A stretch of 64,000 bases of DNA. It comes from an uncultured Clostridia bacterium. Its GTDB lineage: Bacteria; Bacillota; Clostridia; Christensenellales; Aristaeellaceae. The position numbers and the translations under genes were made by a program. Numbering within the stretch: the stretch's first letter is position 1; each line of letters begins with the position of its first letter. Shown one piece after another: positions 11,767 to 31,416 of the stretch. The notes under the pieces were generated by a model. It made no database searches, had not been told where the DNA came from, and was given only the letters and a program-made list of their open reading frames with translations. The DNA lies in contig CAMHSI010000001.1 in the NCBI GenBank assembly GCA_946187775.1, forward strand, positions 20,988 through 84,987. Direction: 5' to 3'.

Positions 11767-12759
11767 TCAGACGCGGCTGACAAGGGACACGGGAAGGCAC
11801 AGCTGCTGCTGCGGCAGGGAGGGATCGTGGATCCGCCTGCGGATCATCTCAATGGCGGCGCGGGCTTCTTCCTGCAGGCAGCAGTCTATGGAGGAAATGG
11901 GCTTGGGGAACTTGAGATAACCGAGGATATTGTCGAACCCGACCACCGTCAGGTCTCCGGGTACGCGGAATCCGGCGCTTTCCAGCAGGGTGATGGTGCT
12001 CCAGGCCTCCACGTCGCAGAAGGAGAAAAGGCCGGTGATTCCTTCGGCGATCCACTCCTTCAGCTGCGCAAGGATCCGGTCCGGATCCTCCAGGCAGGCA
12101 AAACGGACATTTTCCTCCGGAAGGCCGGCTTCCCGGCAGGCCCGGCGGAAACCGGTAAAGCGCTCCCGGGAGGAGAAAACCACCTGATGGTGGGTCAGCA
12201 TGGCCAGGTGCCTGTGGCCGCCGTCAATCAGATGGCGGCCGGCCAGGTAGCCGCCCTCCTCGTCGTTGCAGTAAACGCAGTCGTCCCGGGTCCCCTCCTG
12301 GTAGCGGCTGAGCAGCACAAAGGGGACCCCGGAGGAGCGAAGCATGGACAGGGCCGGGGAATCAAAGGAACAGGGGGTGATGAGGATGCCGTCCACCTGC
12401 CGGGAAAGGGCGTTTTCCACCGCCTGCAGTTCAGTATCCTGCTCCTCCCGGGAGCAGAAAACCATTACACTGTAGCCCAGGCGGCCGGCTTCCTGCTGGA
12501 TCAGGTCCGTGAGCACGGAATAGAAGGGATTCATCATGGAGCCGGCAATCAGGGCCAGGGTTTTTGTGCGCCCGGAGCGCAGGGAGCTGGCCAGGAAATT
12601 GCGCACATAGCCCATGTCCCGGGCCACCTGCTGGATTTTCAGGCAGGTTTCCCGGGAAATATCCTCTTTATTCTTCAGGGCGCGGGAAACGGTGTTGACT
12701 GTAAAACCCGTTGCCCGGGCGATATCCTGAAGGGTTACGCGTCCGTTGTTTTTGCTCAT
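11767..12759 (-). CDS. LacI family transcriptional regulator of the arabinan locus
   Basis: VTLQDIARATGFTVNTVSRAL HTH, RVPGDLTVVGFDN; divergent from the GH43/GH51 operon. Confidence 0.93.
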   Translation of the reverse strand: MSKNNGRVTLQDIARATGFTVNTVSRALKNKEDISRETCLKIQQVARDMGYVRNFLASSLRSGRTKTLALIAGSMMNPFYSVLTDLIQQEAGRLGYSVMVFCSREEQDTELQAVENALSRQVDGILITPCSFDSPALSMLRSSGVPFVLLSRYQEGTRDDCVYCNDEEGGYLAGRHLIDGGHRHLAMLTHHQVVFSSRERFTGFRRACREAGLPEENVRFACLEDPDRILAQLKEWIAEGITGLFSFCDVEAWSTITLLESAGFRVPGDLTVVGFDNILGYLKFPKPISSIDCCLQEEARAAIEMIRRRIHDPSLPQQQLCLPVSLVSRV

Positions 12760-12989: not shown

Positions 12990-13009
12990 CAACATTAACG
13001 TTAATGTTG
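12990..13009. promoter_or_regulatory. Candidate LacI operator O2
   Basis: Perfect 20-bp palindrome CAACATTAACGTTAATGTTG with the central CG typical of LacI-family sites. Confidence 0.8.
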
Positions 13010-13029: not shown

Positions 13030-13974
13030 ATGACGGTAAAACCCCTGATTGAACAGAGAGCGGATCCGTATATCCTCCGGAAGGACGGATGGTATTTTTT
13101 TACTGCCTCCGTTCCTGCCTTTGACCGGATTATCCTCCGGAAAAGCCGTACGCTGGAAGGCCTGGCGGAAGCAGAGGAAATTACCGTATGGCGCAGCCAC
13201 CCGGAAGGGGACATGAGCTGCAATATCTGGGCCCCGGAGCTGCACTTCGTGGACGGCTGCTGGGTGATTTATTTTGCCGCGGCCCGGGAGGGGGCCGACG
13301 GGGAAGGCTGCTATGACCACCGCACCTACGCGCTGGTGAATCCGGCAGAGGATCCCACGGAAGGAACCTTTACCGAAGCGGGAAAGATCGAAACGGGCTG
13401 GGAAAGCTTCACGATTGATTCCACCACCACGGTTTTCGAAGGAAAACGATACTTCATCTGGGCCCAGCGGGACTTCGCCATTCCGGGAAACAGCAACCTG
13501 TATATCGCCGGGATGAAAAACGCGCTGGAGCTGGAGCTGCCGGCGGTGCGGCTGAGCATTCCGGAGTACGACTGGGAGTGCCAGGGATTCCTGGTCAATG
13601 AGGGTCCGGGGTGCCTGCAGCATAACGGGGACCTGTATGTGACCTATTCCGGAAGCGCGACGGATGAGCGGTACGCCATGGGCCTGCTGCACCTGAAGGC
13701 CGGGAGGAATCCCCTGGATGCCTCCGCCTGGGAGAAGAGCCCGGAGCCGGTGATGACGACGGAAGAAGGGAACGGGCTGTACGGCCCCGGCCACAATTCC
13801 TTCACCACGGACGAAGAGGGAAACGACATCCTGGTTTTCCACGCAAGGCCTTATCCGGGATTCCGGGGAACCGCCCTGAGCGACCCGAACCGGCACTGCT
13901 ACCTGAGAAGGGTCCGGTACACCCCGGAAGGAACTCCCGTTTTCCGGGACGGGAACGGCACCACGGAGCACTGA
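13030..13974 (+). CDS. GH43 exo-alpha-L-arabinofuranosidase-like enzyme (cytoplasmic)
   Basis: EQRADPY, IWAPELH, SFTIDST, VNEGP and GPGHNSF; no signal peptide. Confidence 0.9.
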   Translation: MTVKPLIEQRADPYILRKDGWYFFTASVPAFDRIILRKSRTLEGLAEAEEITVWRSHPEGDMSCNIWAPELHFVDGCWVIYFAAAREGADGEGCYDHRTYALVNPAEDPTEGTFTEAGKIETGWESFTIDSTTTVFEGKRYFIWAQRDFAIPGNSNLYIAGMKNALELELPAVRLSIPEYDWECQGFLVNEGPGCLQHNGDLYVTYSGSATDERYAMGLLHLKAGRNPLDASAWEKSPEPVMTTEEGNGLYGPGHNSFTTDEEGNDILVFHARPYPGFRGTALSDPNRHCYLRRVRYTPEGTPVFRDGNGTTEH

Positions 13975-13998: not shown

Positions 13999-15519
<1,521 letters not shown>

Positions 15520-15582
15520 AGAGAAGACTTCACCGGAGGGCGGTTTGCGATGAGCGAGAGACGGAGGAAAGGGAAAAAAGCA

Positions 15583-17004
15583 ATGAGGCAGGTGCTTGCG
15601 CTGATGCTTGGATGTTTGCTGCTGGCGACGGCCGGCTCCGCTGCCGCGTCCAACCGGGACCTGCCCGTTCCCCGTTTCCGGGACGCTGCGGTGCATGACC
15701 CCTCCGTCATTCGGGCAGAGGACGGAACCTGGTATATTTACGGAAGCCACATGGCAGCGGCGCGGAGCGATGACCTGATCCAGTGGACCATGATCAGCCG
15801 GGACGCCGGCAGCGGATGCACCCTGGTGGAGAACGTGCAGGAGCAGATGAAGGAAGCCCTGGAATACGCCAGGACGAACACCTTCTGGGCTCCGGACGTG
15901 GAACGGCTGGCGGACGGGAAATACTACTTCTACTACTGCACCTGCGAGGGATCCAGCCCGCTGAGCATGCTTGGACTGGCGGTGGGAGACAGTCCGGAAG
16001 GGCCCTTTGAAAACAGGGGGATCCTGCTGAAAAGCGGATATCCCGGATACAACGCGACGGTTTACCCCAACGTGGTGGATCCCTGCGTGTTCCATGACCG
16101 GGACGGAAAGCTCTGGATGGTTTACGGAAGCTATTCCGGAGGCATTTACATCCTGGAAATGGATGAAAGCACCGGAAAACCCACGGAGGGACAGGGGTAC
16201 GGGAAAAGACTGCTGGGAAAGAACCATGCCCGGATTGAAGGTCCCTATATCCTCTACAGCCCGGAAACAGAGTACTATTACCTGTTTCTGAGCTTTGGAG
16301 GGCTGGATTCCGGTGGGGGATACAACATCCGGGTCTGCAGGAGCCGGAACCCGGACGGCCCCTATGAGGACGCCCTGGGCCAGGACATGACGGCATGCGG
16401 CGGACAGCCGGGCACCTTTTTCCACGACGTGGATTATGAGGGATACGGGGTCAAGCTGATGGGAGGGTACTGCTTTGAAAACCTCCCCGGGGACACCAAC
16501 CAGTTCCGCCTGGCTTACCGGAGTCCAGGCCACAACAGCGCGTTCTACGAGGAGGAAACGGGAAGGTATTTCCTCGTGTTCCATACACGGTTTGCGGGGG
16601 CGGGGGAAAAGTTCTCCGTCCGCGTTCACCAGATGATGATGAATGAAGACGGGTGGCCGGTGGTGCTTCCCCAGCGTTACGCCGGGGAGATGCCGGAAGC
16701 GGTGGAACCGGAGCAGCGGACCGGAATCTACAAGGTCATTCTCCACGGAAGGGACATCAATGCGGAGGAGCATTCCAGCAGGACGATCCTCCTGAAGGAG
16801 GACGGGACCGTGGAGGGAGACCTTTCCGGAAGCTGGGAGAGTCCGGACGGCCGGGTTTTCCGATGCGTGCTGGACGGAGTCAGCTACCGCGGCGTGATGA
16901 ACACGGCACTGGATTCGAAGGAGGAGGCCTGGGTGACCTGCTTCTCAGCCCTGGATGAGAGCGGAGCGGCGCTGTGGGGAAGCCACGCGGCGCATGAAGA
17001 ATAA
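15583..17004 (+). CDS. Secreted GH43 endo-1,5-alpha-L-arabinanase-like enzyme with C-terminal beta domain
   Basis: Signal peptide; VHDPS, WAPDV, NVVDP, YGSYSGG, IEGPY and SPGHNS; start moved to ATG 15583. Confidence 0.88.
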   Translation: MRQVLALMLGCLLLATAGSAAASNRDLPVPRFRDAAVHDPSVIRAEDGTWYIYGSHMAAARSDDLIQWTMISRDAGSGCTLVENVQEQMKEALEYARTNTFWAPDVERLADGKYYFYYCTCEGSSPLSMLGLAVGDSPEGPFENRGILLKSGYPGYNATVYPNVVDPCVFHDRDGKLWMVYGSYSGGIYILEMDESTGKPTEGQGYGKRLLGKNHARIEGPYILYSPETEYYYLFLSFGGLDSGGGYNIRVCRSRNPDGPYEDALGQDMTACGGQPGTFFHDVDYEGYGVKLMGGYCFENLPGDTNQFRLAYRSPGHNSAFYEEETGRYFLVFHTRFAGAGEKFSVRVHQMMMNEDGWPVVLPQRYAGEMPEAVEPEQRTGIYKVILHGRDINAEEHSSRTILLKEDGTVEGDLSGSWESPDGRVFRCVLDGVSYRGVMNTALDSKEEAWVTCFSALDESGAALWGSHAAHEE

Positions 17005-17021: not shown

Positions 17022-19907
17022 ATGAGGAAAAAGGCCGAAAAATTGCTGTCAGTTCTGCTGGCTTTGCTGTTTTTTCCGTTGGTCGGAACCGGAACGGCGG
17101 AGGAAACGGAAAACTGGATGATGTTTTCCAGCAGGACGGAGCCCTATTACAGCGAGTACCGGAAAGGCCTGACGGCGGAGACGTACAGGGGGGAAGAGAT
17201 TGCAGCCTCCATGGACCGGACGCTCCAGACGGGGGATACGGCGGAGGTTACCCTGACGGTGACGGAAAAGGCGCTGTATGAAGTCTGGATCCAGTACCGG
17301 ACGGAGACGCAAAGCGCCCTGCCCAGCGAGATGACCGTGCGGATTGACGACGCCATTCCCTTCTATGAACTCAGGAGGGTCAAGCTGAAGGCGGAGTGGA
17401 AGGATGACGGGGTCTTCCCGCTGGACCGCTACGGGAATGAAATCGCCACCACCCCGACGGCCCAGCCGGTGATCCAGGAGGCAGGCATGACTGACAGCGC
17501 AGGCTGGACGGACGGTCCCTTCCGGATTGAGCTGGAGCCCGGCGAGCACACCTTTGCCCTGGAGGTCCAGGAAGGCGCCCTCTGGATCGGGAACATCAGC
17601 CTGCGGGCGGGAGAGGAAGTTCCTGCGTACGCGGGAGAGACCGCCGAAGGGGATGGGCTGATTTCCATCAGCGCCGAAAAGATCGACACCAGGAACAAGA
17701 GCAGCATCCGGGCTGCCGGCGAATTTGACGTGAACCTGACCCCCTACGAGACGGATCACCGCAGGATGAATTTCCTGGACGGCGCCAGCTTCGACACCGC
17801 GGGGGATGAGGTCCGCTGGCGCTTTACCGCCGAAAAGGAAGGCTGGTATTACCTGTCCATGAATTACCGGCAGAGCGTGAAGGCGGATTTCCCGGTGTTC
17901 GCGGACGTGCTGATTGACGGGAAGGTGCCGAGCGCCGAGGCGGCCAGGGTACCCTTTGATTACCAGACGGGATTTGAAACCCGGACCGTGAACACCTCCG
18001 CAGGGGAGAAGCAGAGCTTTTTCCTGACCGCGGGCGAGCATACCATCGGCCTGCGGATCAGCGGGGAAAACCTGAGCCCGGTGTATGACGTGATCAACCG
18101 GGTGCTGGGAGAAATCAACGGACTGAGCCTGGAGGTCGTACGGCTGACCGGGGGAATCACTACGGACCGGTACCGGGATTATGAATTGCTGACCTATATC
18201 CCGAACCTGGTGGAGATCCTGACAGGCTGGGCGGATGAACTGGACGCGACGGTGGATTCCATGAAACAGTATTCCTCCAGCGGAAGCGGCAGCGCCTTCA
18301 GCAACCTGACCCTGGCGGCGGACCAGCTCCGGAGGCTGGCGGAAAAACCGGAGGATCTGCCCCGGCGCCTGAGCGAGCTGAGCACCGGCAGCAACAGCGC
18401 AAGCCGGATGCTGGCACAGCAGCTGCAGGATATCGCACAGAACGATCTGAGCATTGACGAGATCTGGCTCTGGCAGGAGGGAGCCACCCTGCCCGGGAAA
18501 AAGAGCTTCCTGCAGTCCACGGCGGAAGGAGTCAACCGCTTCGCCCGCAGCTTCGGAAACCAGGATTACGCGGCCGGAACCGGGAAGGAAGGCCATCTCC
18601 AGGTGTGGATGGGCCGCAGCCGCCAGTACGTGGAGCTGGTGCAGAATATGATTGACGCGGAGTTCACGCCGCAGACCGGCATCGAGGTGGACCTGGGCAT
18701 TATGCCGGACGCCAACAAGCTGGTGCTGGCCAACGCCGCCGGAACAGCCCCGGACGTGGTACTGAGCCTGCAGTATGTGGTTCCCAGCTACCTGAATATC
18801 CGCGGTGCGCTGTACGACCTGACACAGTTTGAGGATTTCGGCGAGGTGGCGCAGCGTTTCAGCAGCGGCCTGTTCATCCCCTACATCCTGGGGGACGGGG
18901 TGTACGCCATGCCGGAAACGGTCAACTTCTGGGTGCAGTTTTACCGGAAGGACATCCTGAACGCGCTGAACATCGAAGTGCCGGACACCATGGAACAGGT
19001 AAAGATGATCCTGCCTGAGCTGCAGCGCCGGAACATGAACTATTACTTCCCGACAGCGGGCATGGTGGGTATGAAGGTCTTTCCGGGAACCCTGCCGCTG
19101 ATCCTGCAGAACGGCGGCAGCATCTACGCGGATACGGTCGGGGATACAACGCTGGACAGCGAGGAAAGCCTGAAGGGCTTCCGGGAAATGACGGACCTGT
19201 TCACCGTGTACAACATGCCGACGGATGTGCCGGCACCCGGCTTCTACCAGCAGTTCCGGGACGGAACCCTCCCCATCGGCATCGCCGACCTCGCGACCTA
19301 CAACCTGCTGCTGAACGCGGCACCGGAGCTGGACGGCATGTGGGAGATCAGCCTGTTCCCGGGAACCAACGGAACCCGCTGGACCACAGGAGGCGCCGAA
19401 ACCATGGCGATCCTGAGCCAGACAAAGATGCCGGAGGAAAGCTGGACCTTCCTGAAATGGTGGAGCAGCACCGAGGTCCAGAGCCGGTTCGGGAACCTGC
19501 TGCAGAGCACCTACGGCAGTGAGTACATCTGGCCCACGGCCAACCGGGAAGCCTTTGAGAGCCTGCCCCTCAAGGCGAAGGACAAAAAGGTGATCCTGGA
19601 GCAGATGAAATGGATGACCGAGGCTCCCTGGGTACTGGGAACATACATGCTGGAGCGGGAGCTGAGCAATGCCTTCGTCAGCGTGGTGGTGGACGGAACG
19701 GACGCCAGGCGGGCGCTGGATACGGCAGTAAAAAGAATCAATCGCGAGACCTACCGGAAGCTGGAGGAATTCGGATACTACAAGGACGGAGTCATGGTCC
19801 GCGAATTCCCGACGCCCACAGTCCGGGTGGTGGAAAAACTGATTGAGGCGGCTCGGCAGAAAAACGGAAACGGGACGACCGAGGGAGAGGAGGGAGCCGG
19901 CCGGTGA
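17022..19907 (+). CDS. Giant extracellular solute-binding protein (N-terminal CBM-like beta-sandwiches and helical region; C-terminal family 1 SBP)
   Basis: Signal peptide; two beta-sandwich repeats ending LEPGEHTFAL and LTAGEHTIGL; SBP motifs AGTAPDV, YAMPET and FYRKDIL. Confidence 0.85.
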   Translation: MRKKAEKLLSVLLALLFFPLVGTGTAEETENWMMFSSRTEPYYSEYRKGLTAETYRGEEIAASMDRTLQTGDTAEVTLTVTEKALYEVWIQYRTETQSALPSEMTVRIDDAIPFYELRRVKLKAEWKDDGVFPLDRYGNEIATTPTAQPVIQEAGMTDSAGWTDGPFRIELEPGEHTFALEVQEGALWIGNISLRAGEEVPAYAGETAEGDGLISISAEKIDTRNKSSIRAAGEFDVNLTPYETDHRRMNFLDGASFDTAGDEVRWRFTAEKEGWYYLSMNYRQSVKADFPVFADVLIDGKVPSAEAARVPFDYQTGFETRTVNTSAGEKQSFFLTAGEHTIGLRISGENLSPVYDVINRVLGEINGLSLEVVRLTGGITTDRYRDYELLTYIPNLVEILTGWADELDATVDSMKQYSSSGSGSAFSNLTLAADQLRRLAEKPEDLPRRLSELSTGSNSASRMLAQQLQDIAQNDLSIDEIWLWQEGATLPGKKSFLQSTAEGVNRFARSFGNQDYAAGTGKEGHLQVWMGRSRQYVELVQNMIDAEFTPQTGIEVDLGIMPDANKLVLANAAGTAPDVVLSLQYVVPSYLNIRGALYDLTQFEDFGEVAQRFSSGLFIPYILGDGVYAMPETVNFWVQFYRKDILNALNIEVPDTMEQVKMILPELQRRNMNYYFPTAGMVGMKVFPGTLPLILQNGGSIYADTVGDTTLDSEESLKGFREMTDLFTVYNMPTDVPAPGFYQQFRDGTLPIGIADLATYNLLLNAAPELDGMWEISLFPGTNGTRWTTGGAETMAILSQTKMPEESWTFLKWWSSTEVQSRFGNLLQSTYGSEYIWPTANREAFESLPLKAKDKKVILEQMKWMTEAPWVLGTYMLERELSNAFVSVVVDGTDARRALDTAVKRINRETYRKLEEFGYYKDGVMVREFPTPTVRVVEKLIEAARQKNGNGTTEGEEGAGR

Positions 19908-20788
19908 TTACGAAAAAAAAGACACCTTATCTGTTTCTGCTTCCTTATCTGATTCTTTTTACCGTGTTCATCATCATTCCGACGGTGATGGCCGTGGGAC
20001 TGAGCTTTACCAACTACAACGCGGTGCAGACCCCCTCCTTTGTAGGACTTACAAATTACATCAACCTGCTGACCCAGGACACCATCTTCCTGCAGTACGT
20101 CCTGCCCAACACGATCCTGTTCAGCCTGGTGGTGGGCCCCGTCGGATACATGCTGGCGTTCTTCCTGGCCTGGAGCCTGAGCCAGCTGACGAAGCTGCCG
20201 CGGACGATCCTGGCGCTGATCCTTTACAGCCCCAGCATGACCATGGGCGTCGCGATGACCGTCATGTGGCGGGTGGTATTCCTGGGCAACCAGAGCGGTA
20301 TCGCCAACTATGTGCTGACCCAGCTGGGCGTGATCACGGAGCCCATCGTCTGGATGCTGAATACCAATTACATTATGCCCATCGTGATTATCGTGGCATT
20401 GTGGGGAAGCATGGGAGTCGGATTCCTGGCGATGCTGGCCGGCCTGCTGGACGTCAACCCGGAGCTGTATGAGGCAGCGGCGATTGACGGCGTGAAGAAC
20501 AGGTTTCAGGAAGTGTTCTATATTACGATTCCCAGCATGAAACCCCAGATGCTCTTCGGCGCGGTTATGAGCATCGTCAACGCCTTCCAGGCGGGTAACA
20601 TCGGCGTGATGCTGACGGGCAGCAACCCGACGCCCCAGTACGCGGCGCAGCTGATGACCAACCATATTGAGGATTACGGATTCACCCGGTATGAGATGGG
20701 ATACGCGGCGGCAGTCAGCGTCGGGCTGCTTGGACTGATCTACGCATTCAGCTTTGTGGCGCGGATGCTGTTCAGCGAAAAGGAGTGA
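19904..20788 (+). CDS. Carbohydrate ABC permease (MalF-type) 1
   Basis: FVGLTNY and EAA loop ELYEAAAIDG; about 6 TMs. Confidence 0.93.
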   Translation: MITKKKTPYLFLLPYLILFTVFIIIPTVMAVGLSFTNYNAVQTPSFVGLTNYINLLTQDTIFLQYVLPNTILFSLVVGPVGYMLAFFLAWSLSQLTKLPRTILALILYSPSMTMGVAMTVMWRVVFLGNQSGIANYVLTQLGVITEPIVWMLNTNYIMPIVIIVALWGSMGVGFLAMLAGLLDVNPELYEAAAIDGVKNRFQEVFYITIPSMKPQMLFGAVMSIVNAFQAGNIGVMLTGSNPTPQYAAQLMTNHIEDYGFTRYEMGYAAAVSVGLLGLIYAFSFVARMLFSEKE

Positions 20789-20794
20789 TGGAAG

Positions 20795-21664
20795 ATGGCA
20801 GCGATCGGAGGAACAAAGGTCAATCCGAAGAAATTCCACAAAAACCAGATTCCGTTCTATCTGTATCTTGTCCCGATTGCGATTTTCATGGGGATGCCGA
20901 TTGTATATATCATCAATCACGCCTTCAAACCCATGGATGAACTGTTCGCTTTCCCGCCGAAATTCTTTGTCAGCCATCCTTCGCTGATCAACTTCCAGAA
21001 CCTGTTCCAGGCGGCAGGCACCAGCAGCATTCCCTTCAGCCGCTACGTTTTCAACAGCCTGGTGGTGACGGTGGCGGTGGTGGGGCTCAGCGTGCTGATC
21101 AGCACCATGGCGGCCTTCGCACTGAGCAAGATGAAATTCCGTTTCAAAAAGCCGATTTTTGAAATCAACAACCTGGCCCTGATGTTTGTGGCCACCGCGG
21201 TGACCATTCCCCGGTACCTGACCATCAGCCAGATCGGAATCCTGGATACCTACTGGGCGCACATCCTTCCCCAGGTGGCGATGCCGGTCTGCCTGTTCCT
21301 GATCAAGCAGTTTGTGGACGGGGTTCCCAACAGCCTGATTGAGGCGGCGCAGCTGGAGGGCGCGGGCAGCTGGAAAATCTACTACAAGATCATTCTTCCG
21401 CTGATCAAGCCCGCGATTGCCACCGGCGCGATCCTGGTGTTCCAGAATGTATGGAACAATATCGAAACCAGCAACCTTTTCACTACGAGCGAGGGAATCA
21501 AAACGCTGGCTTTCTACATGAACACGCTGTCCACGGCGGGCTCCGTACAGGGGCAGGGCATGGCGGCGGCAGCTTCGCTGATCATGTTTATTCCGAACCT
21601 GCTGCTGTTCATCGTGATGCAGAGCAGCGTTATGAACACGATGGCGCACAGCGGACTGAAGTAA
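20795..21664 (+). CDS. Carbohydrate ABC permease (MalG-type) 1
   Basis: YVFNSLVV, SLIEAAQLEGA and FQNVWN. Confidence 0.93.
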   Translation: MAAIGGTKVNPKKFHKNQIPFYLYLVPIAIFMGMPIVYIINHAFKPMDELFAFPPKFFVSHPSLINFQNLFQAAGTSSIPFSRYVFNSLVVTVAVVGLSVLISTMAAFALSKMKFRFKKPIFEINNLALMFVATAVTIPRYLTISQIGILDTYWAHILPQVAMPVCLFLIKQFVDGVPNSLIEAAQLEGAGSWKIYYKIILPLIKPAIATGAILVFQNVWNNIETSNLFTTSEGIKTLAFYMNTLSTAGSVQGQGMAAAASLIMFIPNLLLFIVMQSSVMNTMAHSGLK

Positions 21665-21677
21665 GGAGGGAAAAGGA

Positions 21678-23717
21678 GTGAAAAAAAGGATCCTGATCCT
21701 GATGCTCCTGTGCCTCCTGCTGGTATCCGCCGTCGGGGCGCAGGCATCCACGCCTTACCGGACGTTTACCCTGGGCGTGAACAAGGAGCTGGTGGAAACG
21801 CAGACGGCCTATGAGCCGGTGCGGAGCATGATCCGTTTCGGGGAGGAGACCCTGAAAGATCCTCAGGACCTGAGGATGGGAAAGGACGGAAACCTCTATA
21901 TTGCCGATACGGGCAACAAGCGGGTTCTGGTGGTTACCCGGGAGGGCGAACTGATCCGGGAAATCAAGGACAAGAAGAACATGAAAACGCCCAGCGGCGT
22001 AAACGTGGACGAGGAAGGCAACATCTACGTTGCCGACGAGAGCAGCCGGGCGGTGCTGGTGTACAACAAGGAAGGCACCCTGATCCGGACCTGGGGACGG
22101 CCGACCCACCCCCTCTTCGGGGAAACGGCTCCCTATAAGCCCAGGAAGGTCGTAATCGACAAGCGGGGGAACCTGTACATCTCCAGCAAGGGCAACACCA
22201 ACGGCATCGTGCAGCTGAGCCCTGCCGGGGAGGGAGAGTTCCTGGGCTACTACGGCGCGAACACCTCCAGCGTCAGCTTCCTGACGGCAATCCGGAAAGC
22301 CATCTTCTCGGAAGAGCAACTGTCCGGTATGGCGGGAATCATCCCCATCAGCGTGGAGAACCTGTGCATTGACGATAAGGGAATGGTTTACGCGGTCAGC
22401 CAGACCAACGACGAGCGGAGCCTGCGGCGGCTGAACGTGGCCGGGCGCAACACGATGGTTCCGGACTTCTGGACGGAGCTGACCACCGCGGTGGCGGTGT
22501 CGGAGGGCGGAAGCGTCTTCACGGCCAACGCCAACGGGCGGATCGTGGAATACACCTCGGAAGGAGACATGCTGTTCGTCTTCGGAGCCTTTGACAGCGG
22601 AGACCAGCGGATCGGAACCTTCAAGAGCGTGACGGGCATGGTGGCGGACGAGGAATACCGCCTGTACGTCCTCGACAGCGTGCTTGGAAGCATCCAGGTG
22701 CTGGAGCCGACGGAATTCACCTCCCTGGTGCACACCGCCTTCACCCTGTTCCAGAACGGTAAATACGAGGAAAGCAAGACCCCCTGGGGACAGGTGCAGC
22801 GGATGAACAGCCTCTTCACCTACGCCAATACGGGCATGGGCGAGGCGCTGTACCGGGAAGGGGAATACCAGGACGCCCTTACCAACTTCCGCAACAGCGG
22901 CAACCGGCAGGGGTATTCCGACGCCTGGTGGGAGCTGCGCAGCGACTGGCTGCACAGCCATGTAGGCCTCATCCTGATCCTGCTGGCAGCCCTGGTGGTG
23001 GTCTGGCAGGGACTGAAGCTGCTGAACCGGAAGACCCGGGTGCTGGCGCCTGCGGGCAAAGCCCTCCGGAAGATCGGGGACATCCGGATCCTGAACCAGA
23101 CCGGTTACTGTTTCCGGATGCTGAAGAATCCCTACGACTGCTGCTACGGGATCAAGCGGGAGAACCGGGCGTCCATCCTCAGCGCGGTCATTGTGCTGGT
23201 GCTGGTGTTTATCCTCATCGAAATCAGCAAATACTTCAGCGGATTCCTGTTCAAGACGGTTCAGGAAGGCCAGTATGAGGTGCTCAACGACGCGATCATG
23301 TTCTTCGGCGTATGGGCGCTGCTGGTGATCTGCTGTTACCTGGTCTGCACGATCAAGGAAGGTGAAGCGAGGTTCAGGGACCTGTTCATTGGCGCGTCCT
23401 ACGTGCTTACCCCGATGCTGGTCTTCCTGCCGATACGGATCCTGCTGACCAACGTGCTGACCTTCAACGAGGCGTTCTTCATCACGCTGATCGATGTGGT
23501 CAGCTACGGATGGACGGGACTCCTGGTGGTGCTGATGATCATGTACCTGAATGATTACAGCTTCAAACGGACGCTGGTCATTCTCATCCTTACGGCCTTC
23601 ACGGTGCTGATCGTGGCGGCACTGGGATTTGTGATCTGGGTCCTGGTGAACCAGCTGATTAACTTTGTTTCCGGAATTTACGGAGAGGTGGTGTATCGCT
23701 TTGTCAGGAGGACGTAA
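21678..23717 (+). CDS. NHL-repeat beta-propeller + TPR-like helices + YIP1-like membrane domain fusion
   Basis: Signal peptide; NHL repeats (GNLYIADTGNKRV, GNIYVADESSRAV, GNLYISS); TPR-like ANTGMGEALYREGEYQDAL; TM; then LKNPYD and about 5 TMs. Confidence 0.8.
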   Translation: MKKRILILMLLCLLLVSAVGAQASTPYRTFTLGVNKELVETQTAYEPVRSMIRFGEETLKDPQDLRMGKDGNLYIADTGNKRVLVVTREGELIREIKDKKNMKTPSGVNVDEEGNIYVADESSRAVLVYNKEGTLIRTWGRPTHPLFGETAPYKPRKVVIDKRGNLYISSKGNTNGIVQLSPAGEGEFLGYYGANTSSVSFLTAIRKAIFSEEQLSGMAGIIPISVENLCIDDKGMVYAVSQTNDERSLRRLNVAGRNTMVPDFWTELTTAVAVSEGGSVFTANANGRIVEYTSEGDMLFVFGAFDSGDQRIGTFKSVTGMVADEEYRLYVLDSVLGSIQVLEPTEFTSLVHTAFTLFQNGKYEESKTPWGQVQRMNSLFTYANTGMGEALYREGEYQDALTNFRNSGNRQGYSDAWWELRSDWLHSHVGLILILLAALVVVWQGLKLLNRKTRVLAPAGKALRKIGDIRILNQTGYCFRMLKNPYDCCYGIKRENRASILSAVIVLVLVFILIEISKYFSGFLFKTVQEGQYEVLNDAIMFFGVWALLVICCYLVCTIKEGEARFRDLFIGASYVLTPMLVFLPIRILLTNVLTFNEAFFITLIDVVSYGWTGLLVVLMIMYLNDYSFKRTLVILILTAFTVLIVAALGFVIWVLVNQLINFVSGIYGEVVYRFVRRT

Positions 23718-25929
23718 GATCATCTGCGTGATGCTTGCCCTGCTGCTGGCCGCGATGCCCCTCTGGCTTGCCGCCGGAGAGGAGGCTCCCCAGGTTCAGG
23801 ACGCGGAGACGGCTGCGGAAAGTGAAGCCGTCCGTGAGGACACGATCCCTGCGGAATACGAGAAAATTGCGGAAAACAGCCGGTTCAACCTGTACCTGAG
23901 GCGGGACACCCTGGCGCTGATCGCGGAGAGCAAAAACAGCGGGAAGGTGCTTTACTCAACGGTACAAAATCCGGACGAAATGAAGGATAACGCAACCTGG
24001 AAGGGCTTTTACCAGAGCGGAATCGTCATGGAATACCTGGAGGGCGTCAAGAGCCTTCCCCTGCAGGCGGATTTCATCAATACCGCCAGCGAGATCGACC
24101 TGAAGCTGACAGGGGACGGGTACGAGGCGGAGGTCCTCTATCCGGAGATCGGCATCAGCTACAGCGTAGCCCTGAAGATGGACGAGCGCGGGTTCAGCGT
24201 AAGCATCCCGAAGAGCGGCATCCGGGAATCGGATCCGGAAAACTTCACCGTGTCCGGATTCTATGTCTACCCCTTCATGGGATACAGTTACCTGGGGCAG
24301 GACGACGGATACATGATCATCCCGGACGGACAGGGAGCGATCATCGAACTGAAGGACAACGAGGAACGGTACCAGAGTCCCTTTGACCGGGCGGTGTACG
24401 GCACCAACATCGGCATTGAGGACACGGTGTACAGCGACTGGGGCGTCAGCGCGGAGCAGGTGCTGCTGCCGGCCTTCGGCATGGTGCACGAGGACGACCA
24501 GATGGCGGTGCTGGGCTTCATTGAGAACGGGGACGCCGCGGCAAGGATCCAGGCGTACCCCAACGGGGTCCGGATGAAATTTGACTGGGTCTGCGCCCGG
24601 TACCTGTACCGGATGGTTTACAGCCAGCCCACCGGGCCGAATTCCTCCACCATCAGCATGCGCACGGAATATGCCCGGGAAATTGACATTGTGCAGCAGT
24701 TCCTGCTGGAGGAAGGCGAAACCGCCAATTACGCCGGCCTGGCCACCGCCCTGCGGGACTATATGACGGAAAAGGGGTATTTCGGCGAGGCGGAAACCGG
24801 GAACTTTGATATCGCCGTTGACTTTATCGGCGCGGAAACGGAAAACTTTGTGCTGGGAAAGCAGAGCGTCGTCATGACCTCCTTTGACCAGGCGGCCGAG
24901 ATCCTGAAGGAGCTCGGGAGCCGTGACGTGCACGAAATCAACGTGACCTACCGCGGCTGGCAGGAGGGCGGACTGATCGGAGCCCTGCCGACGGACGGAT
25001 ACAAGCCGGCGGGGGCCCTGGGCGGAGACAGCGGCCTGCAGCGGCTGAAGAGCGCTGCGGAAGGGCAGCGGGACAGGCTCAGCCTGGAGGCAGACTTCCT
25101 CCGCCTGAACACGGAAACCCATCCGCTGCTGTTTTATTCCAGCTTCAAGAAGATCACCAGCCAGACCTGGAAACGGCCTACCTTCGGCAAGGTATACGAC
25201 ACCCTGTACGCCCTGACGCCGAAAAAAAGCCTGGAGATCGGAAGAAACACCGTCCGGGAGCTGAGCGGGCACGGAATCGGCGGGATCACCCTGACGGGCA
25301 TTCCCACGCTGATGAGCGACTGCTACGAGGACAACCATTACCAGGATTCCACCAAGGTCATGAAAGCCTATGAGACCCTGGTGAAGGAAAGCAGCGAGCA
25401 GATGGAAACCATGCTGGAAAAGGCGAACTGCTACCTGTGGCGGTATGCGGCGGCCCTGAAGAACATGCCCATTGCCTGCTCGGATTACACCTATGTGAAG
25501 CGGGAAATCCCCTTCCTGGCCATTACGGTCAGCGGGAAGATTCCGTACTATACGGAATATGTCAACTTTCAGGCCAACACGACTAAATTCTTCCTCCACC
25601 TGGTGGAGCAGGGAACCCGTCCGACCTTCCTGATTACGGCGGAGGATCCCATCAAGCTGCAGAACACCAACAGCAACGATATCTACAGCGCGAAATGGGA
25701 TATGTACCAGGAGATGATTCCCCAGTGGTACGCGGAACTGAAGCAGCTGCATGAGGTGATCGGAAAGGCCCAGATTACCGGCCACACTTTCCGGGGAGAA
25801 CTGGTTCGGGTGGACTGGTCCAACGGCGTCCGGGTGTACGTGAACTTCGGCAGACAGGCAGCCGAAATGGACGGGGTTGCAGTGGAAAAAACCTCATATG
25901 TTATCCTGCAGGGGGGTGAACAGCCGTGA
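23701..25929 (+). CDS. DUF5696-like secreted protein
   Basis: Signal peptide; GYMIIPDGQGAII, LPAFGM and YRGWQEGG; position after the YIP1 gene; TTG 23701 preferred over 23665. Confidence 0.75.
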   Translation: MSGGRKIICVMLALLLAAMPLWLAAGEEAPQVQDAETAAESEAVREDTIPAEYEKIAENSRFNLYLRRDTLALIAESKNSGKVLYSTVQNPDEMKDNATWKGFYQSGIVMEYLEGVKSLPLQADFINTASEIDLKLTGDGYEAEVLYPEIGISYSVALKMDERGFSVSIPKSGIRESDPENFTVSGFYVYPFMGYSYLGQDDGYMIIPDGQGAIIELKDNEERYQSPFDRAVYGTNIGIEDTVYSDWGVSAEQVLLPAFGMVHEDDQMAVLGFIENGDAAARIQAYPNGVRMKFDWVCARYLYRMVYSQPTGPNSSTISMRTEYAREIDIVQQFLLEEGETANYAGLATALRDYMTEKGYFGEAETGNFDIAVDFIGAETENFVLGKQSVVMTSFDQAAEILKELGSRDVHEINVTYRGWQEGGLIGALPTDGYKPAGALGGDSGLQRLKSAAEGQRDRLSLEADFLRLNTETHPLLFYSSFKKITSQTWKRPTFGKVYDTLYALTPKKSLEIGRNTVRELSGHGIGGITLTGIPTLMSDCYEDNHYQDSTKVMKAYETLVKESSEQMETMLEKANCYLWRYAAALKNMPIACSDYTYVKREIPFLAITVSGKIPYYTEYVNFQANTTKFFLHLVEQGTRPTFLITAEDPIKLQNTNSNDIYSAKWDMYQEMIPQWYAELKQLHEVIGKAQITGHTFRGELVRVDWSNGVRVYVNFGRQAAEMDGVAVEKTSYVILQGGEQP

Positions 25930-26861
25930 GCAAAAAGCAGAGGAACCCTCATGACAAGCGTCGCCTGACGAAAAGAATGGTCCGGGAATGGGGATGGGGC
26001 TACCTGTTTGTTGCCCCGTGGATTGTCGGCGTCAGCATCTTTTTCCTGCGGTCCATGGTGCAGAGCCTGCAGTTCGCCTTCAACCGGGTGGAGCTGTCCA
26101 ACGGCGTCATCCTGCACCCGCTTGAGAACGGCATTTTTGAGAACTTTGTCAAGGTATTCACCACGGATGTCAATTTCCCGATGATCCTGGCGAATTTCGG
26201 CATCGGCCTGGTGCTGCAGCTGCCGGTAATCATCTCCTTCAGCCTGATTATTGCCCTGCTGCTGAACAGCAAAATCCGGTGCCGCGGCCTGTTCCGGCTG
26301 ATCTTCTTCCTCCCGGTGATTATCGCCACCGGGCCGGTGATGAACCAGCTGTCGGCCCAGGGCGTCTCCAGCGTTCCCATGGTCAGCCAGAATGCCCTGC
26401 TGGGGGTGCTGCAGGGACTGCCGGAATTCATCTATGAGCCCATCAACAACCTGTTTTCCAGCCTGATCATGATCCTGTGGAACAGCGGTATCCAGATCCT
26501 GATCTTCCTGGCGGGGCTGCAGAAGGTGCCCAGGGCCATGTATGAGGCGGCCAAAATCGACGGGGCCAGCGCCTGGGAGACATTCTGGAAGATCACGCTG
26601 CCCAGCGTGAAAAGCCTGATCCTGCTGAATTCCATCTACACCGTTGTCACCCTCGCCACCGGCGGCAGCAATGAAATCATCGAGCTGATCTATACCGCCA
26701 CCTACACGGCGACACAGGGCTACAGCTACGCCATGGCGATGAGCTGGATCTACACGGCGGTGGTCGCGGTGATTCTGATTATTGTCTTCCTGCTTCTGAA
26801 GGAAAAGAGCGACCGGAAAGTGGTTTACGAACAGAAGCGCGTGGTCATGAAGGGAGTGTAA
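25926..26861 (+). CDS. Carbohydrate ABC permease (MalF-type) 2
   Basis: GYLFVAPW, RLIFFLPVII and MYEAAKIDGASAWETFWKITLP. Confidence 0.93.
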   Translation: MSKKQRNPHDKRRLTKRMVREWGWGYLFVAPWIVGVSIFFLRSMVQSLQFAFNRVELSNGVILHPLENGIFENFVKVFTTDVNFPMILANFGIGLVLQLPVIISFSLIIALLLNSKIRCRGLFRLIFFLPVIIATGPVMNQLSAQGVSSVPMVSQNALLGVLQGLPEFIYEPINNLFSSLIMILWNSGIQILIFLAGLQKVPRAMYEAAKIDGASAWETFWKITLPSVKSLILLNSIYTVVTLATGGSNEIIELIYTATYTATQGYSYAMAMSWIYTAVVAVILIIVFLLLKEKSDRKVVYEQKRVVMKGV

Positions 26862-26868
26862 CCGAAGC

Positions 26869-27861
26869 ATGAACGCAGTCATCGGGAAAGAAAGGAATGC
26901 GGCAGTCCGGCAGAACCGGAAGGAAAAATGGAAGAAGCGGTTCCTGGGCAGCGCGGAGAAGCGGGGATGGATCGGCAGCTTCGTGGTATACGCACTGCTG
27001 ATCGTGATCAGTTTCATCTTCGTTTATCCGGTACTGTACATGATCAGCCGCTCCCTAATGAGCCGCAGCGACCTGCTGGACTCGTCGGCCATGTGGATTC
27101 CCAGCAGCATTACGCTGCACAATTACGAGAGCGCGATCCTGACAATGGATTACTGGAACAGCCTGCTGAAGAACCTGTACCTGGCGGTGGTGCCCACGGT
27201 TGCCCAGGTGCTGATCTGCTCCGCGGTGGGCTATGGATTTGCCCGGTACAACTTCCCGGGAAAGAAAATCTGGATGGGAGTCCTGATCCTGGCTTTCCTG
27301 CTTCCCAGCCAGACCACCGCGCTCCCCAATTACCTGATTTTCCAGAACCTGAGGATGATCGACGGGACCATCAAGCCTTTCCTGATCACCTCGATCCTCG
27401 GGCAGGGATTCAAGAGCACCCTGTGTATCCTGATTTTCTACAATTTCCACAAGCAGACGCCCCAGAGCCTCATCGAGGCGGCGGAAATTGACGGAGCGGG
27501 GCATATCAAGGCCTATTTCCGGATTGCCCTGCCGCTGGCTACGGCGGCCATCGTGGTTGTGACGCTGTTCAGCTTTGTCTGGTACTGGAATGAAACGTAC
27601 CTGGTCCGGAATTACCTGGGCTACGGAACAACCCGGGCGACGGGACTGACGACCCTGATGCTGGAGCTGAACGCCTTTGAGGACAGCTACGCCAGCGCCT
27701 ATACGACCTGGGCTTCCAGTGTTACCAGCTCGGACCGGATCAACGACGCGATCCGGATGGCGGGAACGGTGCTGGCCATCGCGCCGCTGATGATCTTCTA
27801 CTTTGTGCTGCAGAAGCAGTTTGTCGAAAGCGTCGACCGTGCCGGAATCACCGGCGAGTAA
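26869..27861 (+). CDS. Carbohydrate ABC permease (MalG-type) 2
   Basis: GYGFARYNFPGK, LIEAAEIDGA, FVWYWNE and QKQFVESVDRAGITG. Confidence 0.93.
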   Translation: MNAVIGKERNAAVRQNRKEKWKKRFLGSAEKRGWIGSFVVYALLIVISFIFVYPVLYMISRSLMSRSDLLDSSAMWIPSSITLHNYESAILTMDYWNSLLKNLYLAVVPTVAQVLICSAVGYGFARYNFPGKKIWMGVLILAFLLPSQTTALPNYLIFQNLRMIDGTIKPFLITSILGQGFKSTLCILIFYNFHKQTPQSLIEAAEIDGAGHIKAYFRIALPLATAAIVVVTLFSFVWYWNETYLVRNYLGYGTTRATGLTTLMLELNAFEDSYASAYTTWASSVTSSDRINDAIRMAGTVLAIAPLMIFYFVLQKQFVESVDRAGITGE

Positions 27862-27921
27862 TCTCCCCGTATCGAAGCCAGTGATGGCTAGAGATAAAAC
27901 ATTATGAAGGAGGAAGACCCA

Positions 27922-29352
27922 ATGAAGAAAATCCTGGCACTCATCCTGACCCTGGCAATGCTGATCGGCGTTGTGTCCTTCGCAGGCGCGGAAGGAACCT
28001 ACAACATGCCCGAAATGAACACGACAGACCCGATCACCCTGACCTTCATGACCTGGGACGATTTTGAAATGACCGAAGCCCTGGCCAAGAAGTTCATGGA
28101 AAAGTATCCGAACATTACGGTTGAAGTGATCCGCACCACCACGGCTGACGTGGCCGGCGAGCTGCTGAACCGCGCTGCCACCAACGACCTGCCGGACGTG
28201 TATTTCTGGCTGGACCTGGAGCCCCTGATGGCCAGCAAATACATGTACGACATCACCGAGTACATCGAGAACGATGAGGAAGCCCAGACCAGCCTGTACG
28301 ACACCCTGAAGCGGGTCGGCTACCTGGATGGAAAACGCTGCTACTTCATGGCCGGTGAATTCCTGCCCGCCACCGTGTACTGCGACGCCAACGTTTTCGA
28401 GAAGATGAACGTGGAACTGCCTGCCCAGGACTGGAAATGGGAAGACATGCTCGCTCTGATCGACAAGCTGGCGGATCCGTCCCAGGGCTACTGGGGACAT
28501 TTCGGCGGCATGTACAGCTATGTGACCCAGGGACCGCTCTCCCTGACCAGCAACGCCATCGGCGAATTCGGCTGGGACGGCGAGAAGTATGACTTCTCCT
28601 CCGGCTGGGTGGACGCTGTTGAAACCATGATTGAAAACAACCGTCTGGGCAAGGACCTGAACGTCACCTCCGATGAGTATGTGGCTTTGAACCTGGGCGA
28701 CGAGTGGGGCGGCCAGACCGGCCATGTGGGCATTGTGACCGACGCCTTCTGGACCCTGAACAATATCTACACCAAGCCCATCTGCCTCGACCGCGGCACC
28801 AAGATGATCCCCTACAACCCGCCGTTAGGCGCGGACGCCGAGAATGCCGCCCAGCTGGCCTTCCTGGATATGTATTCCATCTCCGCCACCTGCGAGCATC
28901 CCCGCGAGGCTTATGAACTGGCCAAGTACCTGACCTGGGGCAAGGAAGGCTGGCTCGAGCGGATCAAGCTGTTCCCTGAAATCACCTGGGAAGCCACCGG
29001 AGAAAAGGCTTATGACGTTCCCAACTGCCTGCCGATGGTTACGGACGAAGAAGTGGTTGCCAAGTATGTCGAGCTGATGCCCGACCTGGGATACTGGAAC
29101 GACTGGGCTGCCTTCATGGACGGCATCCAGAACCCCGTGACCTGGGGCAGCCGCACGATTCCCGGCTTCGCTTCCTTCGTGAACAATTACTATCATGGCT
29201 CCGACTATAACGGAACCGTGGGTATCGAAGCCGCCATCGCTGCCGGCACTGTGGATCCCTATGACTATACCGATATCCTGGCGGAAGCCGGACGGAAGTA
29301 CTACGACGAAGCTATGGAAGTTTTCTACGGCGTATACGGAAAGCCCGAATAA
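27922..29352 (+). CDS. Sugar ABC solute-binding protein (family 1)
   Basis: Signal peptide, ITLTFMTW, LPDV, DWKWEDML and EHPREAYEL; start moved to ATG 27922 after AGGAGG. Confidence 0.88.
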   Translation: MKKILALILTLAMLIGVVSFAGAEGTYNMPEMNTTDPITLTFMTWDDFEMTEALAKKFMEKYPNITVEVIRTTTADVAGELLNRAATNDLPDVYFWLDLEPLMASKYMYDITEYIENDEEAQTSLYDTLKRVGYLDGKRCYFMAGEFLPATVYCDANVFEKMNVELPAQDWKWEDMLALIDKLADPSQGYWGHFGGMYSYVTQGPLSLTSNAIGEFGWDGEKYDFSSGWVDAVETMIENNRLGKDLNVTSDEYVALNLGDEWGGQTGHVGIVTDAFWTLNNIYTKPICLDRGTKMIPYNPPLGADAENAAQLAFLDMYSISATCEHPREAYELAKYLTWGKEGWLERIKLFPEITWEATGEKAYDVPNCLPMVTDEEVVAKYVELMPDLGYWNDWAAFMDGIQNPVTWGSRTIPGFASFVNNYYHGSDYNGTVGIEAAIAAGTVDPYDYTDILAEAGRKYYDEAMEVFYGVYGKPE

Positions 29353-29373
29353 GCCGGACGGTAACCATCGACC

Positions 29374-29398
29374 GGGGAGGAGCGCAACGCTCCTCCCC
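29374..29398 (+). terminator. Strong intra-operon stem-loop after the SBP gene (partial terminator or stabiliser)
   Basis: ggggaggagcg-caa-cgctcctcccc with a weak U tail. Confidence 0.65.
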
Positions 29399-29448
29399 AT
29401 TCTGATAAAAAACGCGGGCAGGGCTCCGCGGAGGAAGGGGAGAATACT

Positions 29449-31416
29449 GTGGGCAGAATGCTGACGGCCCTGGCGGCGGCAGCGGTGCTCCTGCTGCAGG
29501 CGGGAGCGGGAACGGGGGAAACCCTGACTGTCGACCCGGCCCGGCCGGTTCATGGGATCAGCCAGACCCTGTACGGCCTCTTTTTTGAGGATATCAACCA
29601 CGCCGCGGACGGCGGGCTGTATGCGGAGCTGCTGCAGAACCGGTCCTTTGAATATGAGGAGCTTCTCAATCCCGCCCCGCACCAGCACCTGACAGGCTGG
29701 GCTTTCAATATGGGGACGGGAAAGGGACAAATCGGGATCAGCACGGAGGATCCGCTGAACGAAAACAACAGGACCTACATCCGCCTGGACGCGGAGGACG
29801 GCTACGCCTTCCAGAACCTGGGCTGGGGCCAGAGCGCCTTCCGGGGCGGGATTCCCGTCCGAAAAGGGGAGCTGTATGACGTCAGCGTATGGCTGAGGAG
29901 CGTTTCCCCGGGGGAAAGCGCCCAGAAGATCGCCGTGTCCCTGACGACCAGGGCCGGGGCAGGCTTAAGCAGCGAGGTTGTTTTTGAGCCCGGCGGCAGC
30001 TGGAAACGGATGGAGGCGGTGCTGGAGGCCTCGGAGACCGCGGAGGACGCCTGCCTCAGCTTCCGGGCCGTCGGGACCGGGGAGACGGATGTGGACATGG
30101 CGTCGCTGATGCCCCGGGACCGGATCGGCGCGGAATGGCCGGGCGGAGGCATGCGCCGGGACCTGGTGGAGGCGCTGGCAGAGCTGCATCCCGCATTCCT
30201 GCGGTTCCCCGGAGGATGTGTCACGGAGGGATCCTGGGTATGGGAGAACCTGTACCGCTGGAAGGACACTGTCGGACCGGTGGAAGAACGGAAGGAAAAC
30301 TGGAACACCTGGGGATATATGCAAAGCTACGGCATCGGCTTCTATGAATACTTCTGCCTGTGCGAGGAAATCGGAGCCCTGCCCCTGCCCGTGGTGGGGA
30401 GCGGAGTGCTCTGCCAGGCCAGGGAACCCGCGGAAAGCCCCATGAACGAGGAGAAGCTGGCGGAGTGGACCCGGGATGTGCTGGACCTGGTGGAATTCGC
30501 GAAAGGAGACGCCGGAACCGAATGGGGAGCCCTGCGGGCCGCCATGGGGCATGAGGAGCCTTTTGACCTGCGCTTCCTGGCCATCGGGAACGAAAACTGG
30601 GCGAATATCTATTTTGACCGGTATGAAAAAATCCGGAACGCCGTGAAGGAGGCCTGGCCGGAGATTACCTGCGTCGTGGCCAACGGCCCCGTGGCGGACG
30701 GATCCCTGTTCAGTGCCGGCCGCAGCACGATCCTGCGCCGCTTCCCGGAGGACCTGGCGGATGAGCATTACTACATGGACAGCGGCTGGTTCCTGAAAAA
30801 CACCCACCGGTACGACCTCTATCCCAGGAGCAGCGGGGTATTCCTGGGGGAATACGCAGCCCATGAGAGCGCCGCCGGAGGGCGCAGGCCCAACAACCTG
30901 TACAGCGCGCTGTGCGAAGCCGCGTACCTGACCGGCATCGAAAGGAACAGCGATGTGGTGCGGATGTGCTGTTACGCGCCGCTGCTGGCGCGCCAGGGAA
31001 TGGATCAGTGGACACCGGACCTGATCTGGTTTGACGGCACCAGGGTCCTGCGCACGCCGAACTACTATATCCAGCAGATTTTCTCCGGATCCCTGGCGGA
31101 GGAGCTTATTGAGAGCCGCTGGATAACGGAAGGAGCGGACCCCGATCCGGAGCGGGAAGGGCTGTACCAGACCGCCGGAAGGAAAAAGGACGGAACGGTA
31201 TATATCAAGATCGTCAACGTATCCGGGGAGGAACGGGAAATCCGGGTAACGGATCCGGAGGGAAATCCCCTGGCCGGAAGGATGACGGTGCTGTCCGGAG
31301 AACGGCAGGCGGTCAATACCCTTTCCGAAGAAAAGGTGAAGCCGGAGGAGACGGCATTTGAAGGTTCCGCCGCCTTTCCGGGATACGCGGCGGCAGTGAT
31401 TGAAATCCGCCCGTAG
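29449..31416 (+). CDS. Secreted GH51 alpha-L-arabinofuranosidase with CBM-like insert
   Basis: Signal peptide; YGLFFEDINHAADGGLYAELLQNRSFE, LRFPGGC, AIGNEN, FLGEYA and YAPLL. Confidence 0.92.
   Translation: MGRMLTALAAAAVLLLQAGAGTGETLTVDPARPVHGISQTLYGLFFEDINHAADGGLYAELLQNRSFEYEELLNPAPHQHLTGWAFNMGTGKGQIGISTEDPLNENNRTYIRLDAEDGYAFQNLGWGQSAFRGGIPVRKGELYDVSVWLRSVSPGESAQKIAVSLTTRAGAGLSSEVVFEPGGSWKRMEAVLEASETAEDACLSFRAVGTGETDVDMASLMPRDRIGAEWPGGGMRRDLVEALAELHPAFLRFPGGCVTEGSWVWENLYRWKDTVGPVEERKENWNTWGYMQSYGIGFYEYFCLCEEIGALPLPVVGSGVLCQAREPAESPMNEEKLAEWTRDVLDLVEFAKGDAGTEWGALRAAMGHEEPFDLRFLAIGNENWANIYFDRYEKIRNAVKEAWPEITCVVANGPVADGSLFSAGRSTILRRFPEDLADEHYYMDSGWFLKNTHRYDLYPRSSGVFLGEYAAHESAAGGRRPNNLYSALCEAAYLTGIERNSDVVRMCCYAPLLARQGMDQWTPDLIWFDGTRVLRTPNYYIQQIFSGSLAEELIESRWITEGADPDPEREGLYQTAGRKKDGTVYIKIVNVSGEEREIRVTDPEGNPLAGRMTVLSGERQAVNTLSEEKVKPEETAFEGSAAFPGYAAAVIEIRP

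Follow-up and report, generated by a model that had tools for sequence, protein, structure and literature searches.

In Bacteroidetes, SusCD and surface glycan-binding proteins form a platform that holds a glycan next to its transporter, with swappable specificity. It is an open question how Gram-positive degraders of fibre, which lack SusCD, retain large fragments of glycans and take them up. We addressed it with a locus from an uncultured Clostridia bacterium (GenBank assembly GCA_946187775.1). The locus comprises eight consecutive genes at 17022 to 29352 of a 64,000-nucleotide stretch of contig CAMHSI010000001.1 (positions 20,988 to 84,987), which we call the window. The encoded module is built on parts of CUT1 ATP-binding cassette (ABC) importers (TC 3.A.1.1), with unstudied accessories. 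Like CUT1 importers of the MalEFGK2 type, it has SBP_bac_1/8 substrate-binding domains (the C-terminal domain of S1, and S2) and MalF/MalG-type permeases with EAA motifs, and there is no ATPase gene in the operon. Unlike them, it has two permease-pair subfamilies (F1-G1 and F2-G2), a 961-amino-acid fusion of CBM35-like domains to a substrate-binding protein (SBP; S1), an NHL-Yip1 protein (NY), a protein with the fold of glycoside hydrolase family 129 (GH129; D), and a trio (S1-F1-G1) that is apparently shared between cassettes. The likeness to SusCD is an analogy only: the module is a predicted ATP-driven system of the cytoplasmic membrane and lacks a TonB-dependent barrel, SusD and lipoprotein anchors. 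No Pfam family for TonB-dependent barrels or SusD was found among the 45 window proteins scanned.

The closest described locus is the xylan locus of Caldicellulosiruptor (Anaerocellum) bescii, Athe_0174-0181, with the order xloEFG-X-GH129-axoFGE. In the accessible part of the paper describing it, xylan induces this locus, and its genes are assigned to two predicted CUT1 transporters (PMC8579813); Athe_0177 is labelled an NHL repeat protein and Athe_0178 a putative GH129 (PMC8579813, Table 3 and supplement). The eight-gene order (SBP, F, G, NHL protein, GH129-like, F, G, SBP) is the same as ours, a match by order and labels rather than by alignment. The two loci differ in that the C. bescii context is xylan, not arabinan, and in that the published reading is two transporters and an enzyme. 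The gene order was already in print; the accessible part of that paper does not describe a mechanism. The C. saccharolyticus counterparts are xylan-responsive, according to the portion available of PMC5658599, and a review, also accessible in part, reports that Athe_0181 boosts biomass hydrolysis (PMC10492685). One MsmK powers all of the oligosaccharide importers of A. bescii, based on genetic evidence cited in the available part of PMC12838199.

A precedent for the Yip1 domain is the YknWXYZ system of Bacillus subtilis, in which YknW, a Yip1-family membrane protein, is an accessory subunit of an ABC system (PMC4338810, accessible part). Unlike our module, YknWXYZ is a MacAB-type exporter with a membrane-fusion protein, and YknW lacks a propeller. 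Of the parts of such an exporter, the window contains Yip1 alone. Our literature searches, which mostly did not extend to subscription journals, turned up neither a mechanistic study nor any account that treats the module as a unit, and nothing on DUF5696 (the Pfam family of D) or on transporters that combine Yip1 and NHL. A search for the term "Yip" in a 2026 review of glycoside transporters (PMC13543919) also found nothing.

We propose that the quartet (NY-D-F2-G2) and the trio cooperate to take up arabinan fragments through a single system made of two parts: the swappable quartet and S2 would select the sugar, and the conserved trio would be the shared partner. We put the probability of this reading at roughly one half, or slightly above (0.52), and we infer the steps that go beyond the anatomy of the locus.

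First, we asked how the genes are distributed. We searched 401 genomes of the phylum and scored 3 to 6 candidates per genome, so these searches show presence and not copy number. DUF5696 had a strong match (E below 1e-100) in 34 of the genomes. Profiles for the N-terminal part of S1 and for F1 each find 33 of these 34. With six candidates scored per genome, the F2 profile reached 286 bits or more only in those 33, and the next-best score was 179, which supports the reading of the earlier note. Weak matches to PF18952 (DUF5696) were rejected as family members: the ones that we scanned are GH129, DUF6259, GH13 or unassigned.

We then examined 55 related DUF5696 loci, which are all 50 of the strong loci listed outside this genome, plus five close ones; close kin are included. 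NY lies directly 5' of D in 54 of the 55, and the remaining locus begins at a contig end. F2-G2 lies directly 3' of D in 51 loci; three others end early and one is interrupted. With such counts, the arrangement is not due to chance. The trio is inside the fetched stretch in 36 of the 55 loci. A small SBP is often found at one end of the locus, and in some loci none was detected. The flanking enzymes vary (GH26/GH130, GH10/GH43, pectate lyases, GH28, GH42 or GH38), so the module recurs while the neighbouring glycan enzymes change among those for arabinan, mannan, xylan, pectin and galactan, as the earlier note had anticipated. Its invariant eight-gene unit did not hold up: S2 moves or is missing, and the two parts of the core permute (6 of 55 loci) or separate. 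The conserved unit is instead seven genes in two separable parts, the trio and the quartet. The earlier note's further proposals, four transmembrane domains bridged by YIP1 and a SusCD-like capture of long glycan, are hypothetical.

Some of these loci have unusual settings. In G317 (contig C3; L044:13853-19654), the full module is followed by Omp85/POTRA and LpxD genes; in this member of the phylum, which bears an outer membrane, the large domains would be periplasmic. Two full cores, L051 (G353:C17) and L036 (G019:C1), have no glycoside hydrolase among the scanned neighbours, and L051 lies beside ribosomal protein genes.

Second, quartets can outnumber trios. For five multi-copy genomes, every candidate was scored. 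We found 10 quartets (DUF5696 genes) and 4 trios (S1 genes) in G050, 8 and 4 in G219, at least 10 and 4 in G161, at least 10 and 6 in G040, and 4 of each in G359. In the four quartet-rich genomes, some loci are full modules and others are quartets with no trio close by; each genome also has one intact trio that stands alone. G128 and G293 also keep a stand-alone trio. The stand-alone trios are intact, and most have no glycan enzymes close by. In a quick tree built from 57 F2+G2 pairs, absence of the trio requires 7 changes, at least 5 of which are forced by strong branches. Thus, the trio-less state arose repeatedly; a single origin was rejected, on the quick tree only. Because four multi-copy genomes hold more quartets than trios, the trio is probably shared.

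Third, the two SBPs differ in conservation. Across 15 loci with different glycan enzymes, the SBP domain of S1 has a median identity of 42%, as compared to 18% for S2. The permeases show 51% and 46% identity for F1 and G1, versus 36% and 37% for F2 and G2, across the same loci; the S1 domain thus far exceeds S2 in conservation and is close to F1 and G1. The SBP domain of S1 is also tighter than 23 free paralogues from the same subfamily in a single genome (33%). S2 is the variable part, likely the substrate-specific one. Together, the surplus of quartets and the conserved SBP domain of S1 versus the variable S2 fit a generic trio common to substrate-specific quartets.

These observations bear on the simplest alternative, that the operon encodes two independent CUT1 importers: S1-F1-G1 would take up one ligand, S2-F2-G2 would take up another, and NY and D would be accessories of the second importer only. 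Both permease pairs amount to full F/G heterodimers that carry EAA motifs, the trio and the quartet can lie apart or in swapped order, F1-G1 is found where the quartet is absent (see below), and the accessible part of PMC8579813 annotates XloEFG and AxoFGE as two transporters. However, two independent importers would not explain why the trio is kept in 33 of 34 quartet genomes, why the binding domain of S1 varies so little between loci for mannan, xylan, pectin and arabinan, or why intact stand-alone trios are maintained, mostly away from glycan enzymes. We consider this alternative possible and somewhat doubtful.

Several observations weigh against a fixed eight-subunit machine or against cooperation between trio and quartet. 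The trio lies 3' of the quartet in 6 of the 55 loci, so the order is not that of a fixed machine. The two parts co-occur mostly because they are linked, and the genomes are related to one another; of the quartet-rich four, three belong to a single genus. It is equally conceivable that the surplus quartets function on their own. G325, a 100% complete genome, contains a divergent quartet and lacks a trio, and G076, G102 and G160 have trio fragments on 3- to 4-kb contigs and no detectable DUF5696. An F2-G2 pair in G219:C18 (L105:3029-4750) lacks NY, D and an SBP; it is probably a relic, since its G2 has only 264 amino acids and seems to lack an internal segment. The arabinan specificity of S2 rests on gene context and a weak, second-best structure match (6rjy, E 1.7e-11). 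Finally, four genomes of family f17 contain an F1-G1 pair (about 400 bits) and have no F2 of this subfamily, no match to the Yip1 region and no DUF5696. F1-G1 is therefore independent of the quartet there. The earlier note had proposed that independent permease pairs would count against a single complex, and this was found in part: F1-G1 occurs without NY, D or F2-G2 in these four genomes.

Downstream of the F1-G1 pair in f17 lie genes for two MalK-type ATPases, for secreted proteins of the CBM type and for two small hydrophobic proteins. These genomes have 34 to 42 free SBPs of the S1 subfamily each (three genomes searched) and 13 to 17 permease domains of any kind each (all four genomes). 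Among the neighbours of the free SBPs, 7 of 36 scanned genes are GHL10. By these gene counts, F1-G1 of f17 seems to be a conduit of broad range, a single gateway that serves dozens of binding proteins. The f17 loci are L084, L117-L120 (G006:C9, G131:C88, G053:C3, G093:C8), L122-L124 and L126-L142. The family also has a stand-alone protein like the N-terminal part of S1 (449 to 544 amino acids). For the cell that carries our window, the trio permease was rejected as the sole sugar gateway, because roughly a dozen further CUT1-like permease pairs are encoded in its genome.

The proteins of the module have the following anatomy. Pfam identifies two SBPs, four BPD_transp_1 permeases, one NHL+Yip1 protein and one full-length DUF5696 protein. 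EAA motifs are kept in all four permeases, and the MalF- and MalG-type calls for both pairs have scores below the equivalog cut-offs. S1 has a signal peptide and no further hydrophobic helix. Its residues 1-500 match CBM35/CBM6-type domains twice, with a helical insert (profile matches to 5x7g at E 4e-10, 2vzp and coiled-coil designs); a conserved amphipathic-looking helix at about 495-512 is followed by a CUT1-type SBP domain at about 525-915, in which the Pfam match (SBP_bac_1/8) is confined to residues 543-823. S1 is thus a giant SBP that also carries CBM35-like domains, in support of the earlier note's interpretation. NY has a signal peptide, an NHL beta-propeller (NHL 60-85), one hydrophobic helix and a five-helix Yip1 domain (Yip1 480-648), and it is split into two genes in 11 of the 55 loci. 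Of the three domains first proposed for NY, Pfam supports NHL and Yip1; TPR is weakly supported (TPR_2, E 1.3e-4, below the cut-off, and short TPR-like helices). No lipobox was found in S1, NY, D or S2.

D matches DUF5696 (PF18952) along its full length (E 1.4e-139). A structural model from a 51-row alignment had a mean confidence (pLDDT) of 87.7; a single-sequence fold reached 32.5 and was not used. The model has a beta-sandwich, a (beta/alpha)8 barrel and a C-terminal beta domain. In a Foldseek comparison with known structures, it resembles GH129 and then GH101 along its whole length, with 5opq, 8rzk and 5wzn as top matches (5opq: E 1.1e-31, TM score 0.64, 14% identity). Thus, the whole-chain fold of GH129 (NagBb, 5wzn; ZgGH129, 5opq) and GH101 is shared with D, whereas identity is 12 to 14%, D has no match to PF11308 (GH129), and the catalytic acids are not conserved in the D family. 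No protein of the genome (G000) matches PF11308 at E 1e-20.

This raises the alternative that D is catalytically active at the surface, as a glycosidase or transglycosylase trimming glycans just before import, with NY as its membrane anchor. We carried over D435 and E478 of NagBb, which we take to be the catalytic nucleophile and acid/base, to D via two weak alignments, one of them of three GH129 sequences. D from this locus keeps a glutamate at the acid/base position and has no acidic residue on the nucleophile strand. Among 51 homologues, the nucleophile column is acidic (D/E) in 5, any of three neighbouring columns is acidic in 21, the acid/base column is acidic in 25, and acids are near both sites in 11. 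Because the acid of the nucleophile strand is absent, this copy of D is likely a pseudo-enzyme. Besides the GH129/GH101 fold, the retained glutamate and the 11 homologues, the label of the C. bescii counterpart ("putative GH129" in the accessible part of PMC8579813) favours activity. In contrast, the missing acid, the poorly kept columns and the fact that one family adjoins many different glycan types make an active D quite unlikely. D is likely a non-catalytic glycan binder.

If trio and quartet cooperate, uptake of arabinan might proceed as follows. The secreted endo-arabinanase and GH51 (Table 1) would release arabino-oligosaccharides at the surface, and S2 would bind them. NY, anchored beside F2-G2 by its Yip1 helices, would hold the non-catalytic D as a glycan-holding antenna. 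The quartet would require a trio, either linked or encoded elsewhere. The binding domain of S1 would not be a receptor for a specific substrate; it would stay docked to F1-G1 at all times as a generic partner. In the wiring that we prefer, F1-G1 would be a broad-range conduit, and the candidate sugar carrier, that is loaded by the quartet.

Both permease pairs would use an unlinked ATPase of the MalK/MsmX type. A Pfam scan of the genes at 13030-31416 gave no ABC ATPase, in agreement with the earlier note, and the same genome has unlinked MalK-like genes (G000, C2) with 48% and 44% identity to a MalK-type query. In L046, a MalK-type ATPase gene (17305-18423) lies directly upstream of S1; it is the only linked ATPase among the scanned neighbours in canonical loci.

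One permease pair might instead drive or signal, through ATP-powered movement of the surface platform or by sensing a substrate. The invariant binding domain of S1 might fit this role, as might the quartet of G325 (L053:7633-17764, G325:C60), in which HlyD-like and MacB-like genes, found in this variant only, lie between D and F2 and recall YknWXYZ; a GH16 gene follows. On the other hand, both pairs resemble ordinary CUT1 permeases, F1-G1 of f17 is paired with dozens of SBPs, several of which adjoin glycoside-hydrolase-like genes, and a LacI regulator belongs to the operon itself. We regard a role as motor or sensor as very improbable.

All eight open reading frames that the earlier note had listed are intact and correctly placed (Table 1). 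They are also tightly coupled, as it had said: every junction is an overlap or a gap of 42 bases or less (two 4-base overlaps, the 17-base overlap of NY and D, and gaps of 6, 13, 7 and 42 bases).

Table 1. Features of the operon and its flanks (positions in the window; aa, amino acids; RBS, ribosome-binding site)
Feature	Positions	Strand	Remarks
LacI-family regulator	11767..12759	-	Divergent from operon; Pfam LacI + Peripla_BP_3
Perfect 20-bp palindrome	12990..13009		Likely LacI operator; second partial copy near 12910
GH43	13030..13974	+	Pfam
GH51 alpha-L-arabinofuranosidase, ArfA-type	14014..15519	+	NCBIfam NF051901 above cut-off
Secreted GH43 endo-arabinanase, AbnB-like	15550..17004	+	Pfam; NF053746 609.7 bits (cut-off 750)
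S1, SBP, 961 aa	17022-19907	+	Trio part 1
F1, MalF/UgpA-type permease with EAA motif	19904-20788	+	Trio part 2
G1, MalG/UgpE-type permease with EAA motif	20795-21664	+	Trio part 3
NY, NHL-Yip1 protein, 679 aa	21678-23717	+	Quartet part 1
D, secreted DUF5696 protein	23701-25929	+	Quartet part 2; alternative start 23665; 742 aa from likely TTG at 23701
F2, second MalF-type permease, own subfamily, EAA motif	25926-26861	+	Quartet part 3
G2, second MalG-type permease, EAA motif	26869-27861	+	Quartet part 4
S2, ordinary-size SBP	27904-29352	+	SBP_bac_1/8 (Pfam); better RBS at 27922
G+C-rich hairpin 3' of S2	29363..29405	+	-24.2 kcal/mol, no long U tract
Secreted GH51 with CBM4/9-like domain	29449..31416	+	Pfam

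The enzymes upstream (GH43, the ArfA-type GH51 and the AbnB-like endo-arabinanase) and the secreted GH51 downstream point to arabinan as the substrate of the operon. The LacI gene and the palindrome likely control it. The core of the palindrome occurs only at 12990-13009 and in the partial copy near 12910 in the 64%-complete genome; among four close relatives, the palindrome is retained in L004 and L005 and was not seen in L002 or L006. Scans for promoters and terminators in the window gave chance-level counts (7 versus 6.2 and 18 versus 16.7, respectively).

The stretch is present in sequencing runs from cattle and sheep gut, and the closest loci are from metagenome-assembled genomes of Clostridia, one of which is labelled sheep rumen. 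Contigs from RNA libraries (4 runs from 2 studies, bovine and sheep gut) cover all eight genes and span several junctions; we do not claim expression from these contigs, whose depth cannot rank the genes.

Elsewhere in the window, a GH10 gene (38906-40288, minus strand) and a GH31 gene (3330-5387, minus strand) lie outside the operon. Positions 31634-38832 encode another sugar ABC set of ordinary type, which consists of two permeases along with a 536-amino-acid secreted protein with no Pfam match, followed by two Gfo/Idh/MocA oxidoreductases. A small frame at about 31648-31800 has two CxxC-type motifs and is presumably rubredoxin-like. At 44661-54065 is a cluster of genes for an ABC-2 ATPase and permease and for MoxR AAA, DUF58, BatA-vWA and vWA-GATase-like proteins, and it is preceded by a gene for an 863-amino-acid protein with no Pfam match (42083-44674). 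A 495-amino-acid secreted protein with a low-complexity start rich in proline and glycine and no Pfam match is encoded at 62036-63523 on the plus strand.

More tentatively, the module may be a new architecture by which Gram-positive bacteria import glycans. Seven subunits would form one membrane machine that has two ABC motors, and its universal trio, a CBM35-SBP fusion on a permease of broad range, would be shared, much as an ATPase is, among many substrate-specific quartets that capture long or branched glycans and feed them to it. In another lineage, the same permease, without the quartet, would be the only gateway through which about forty binding proteins work. About 8% of the phylum's sampled genomes contain the module, in up to ten copies each. 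In gene order it corresponds to a xylan locus from a biofuel organism that is amenable to genetics, a locus that has been interpreted as encoding two ordinary transporters. Should the trio prove to be shared and D to be a pseudo-enzyme, substrate predictions based on S1 would be wrong, and so would the annotation of DUF5696 proteins as "GH129".

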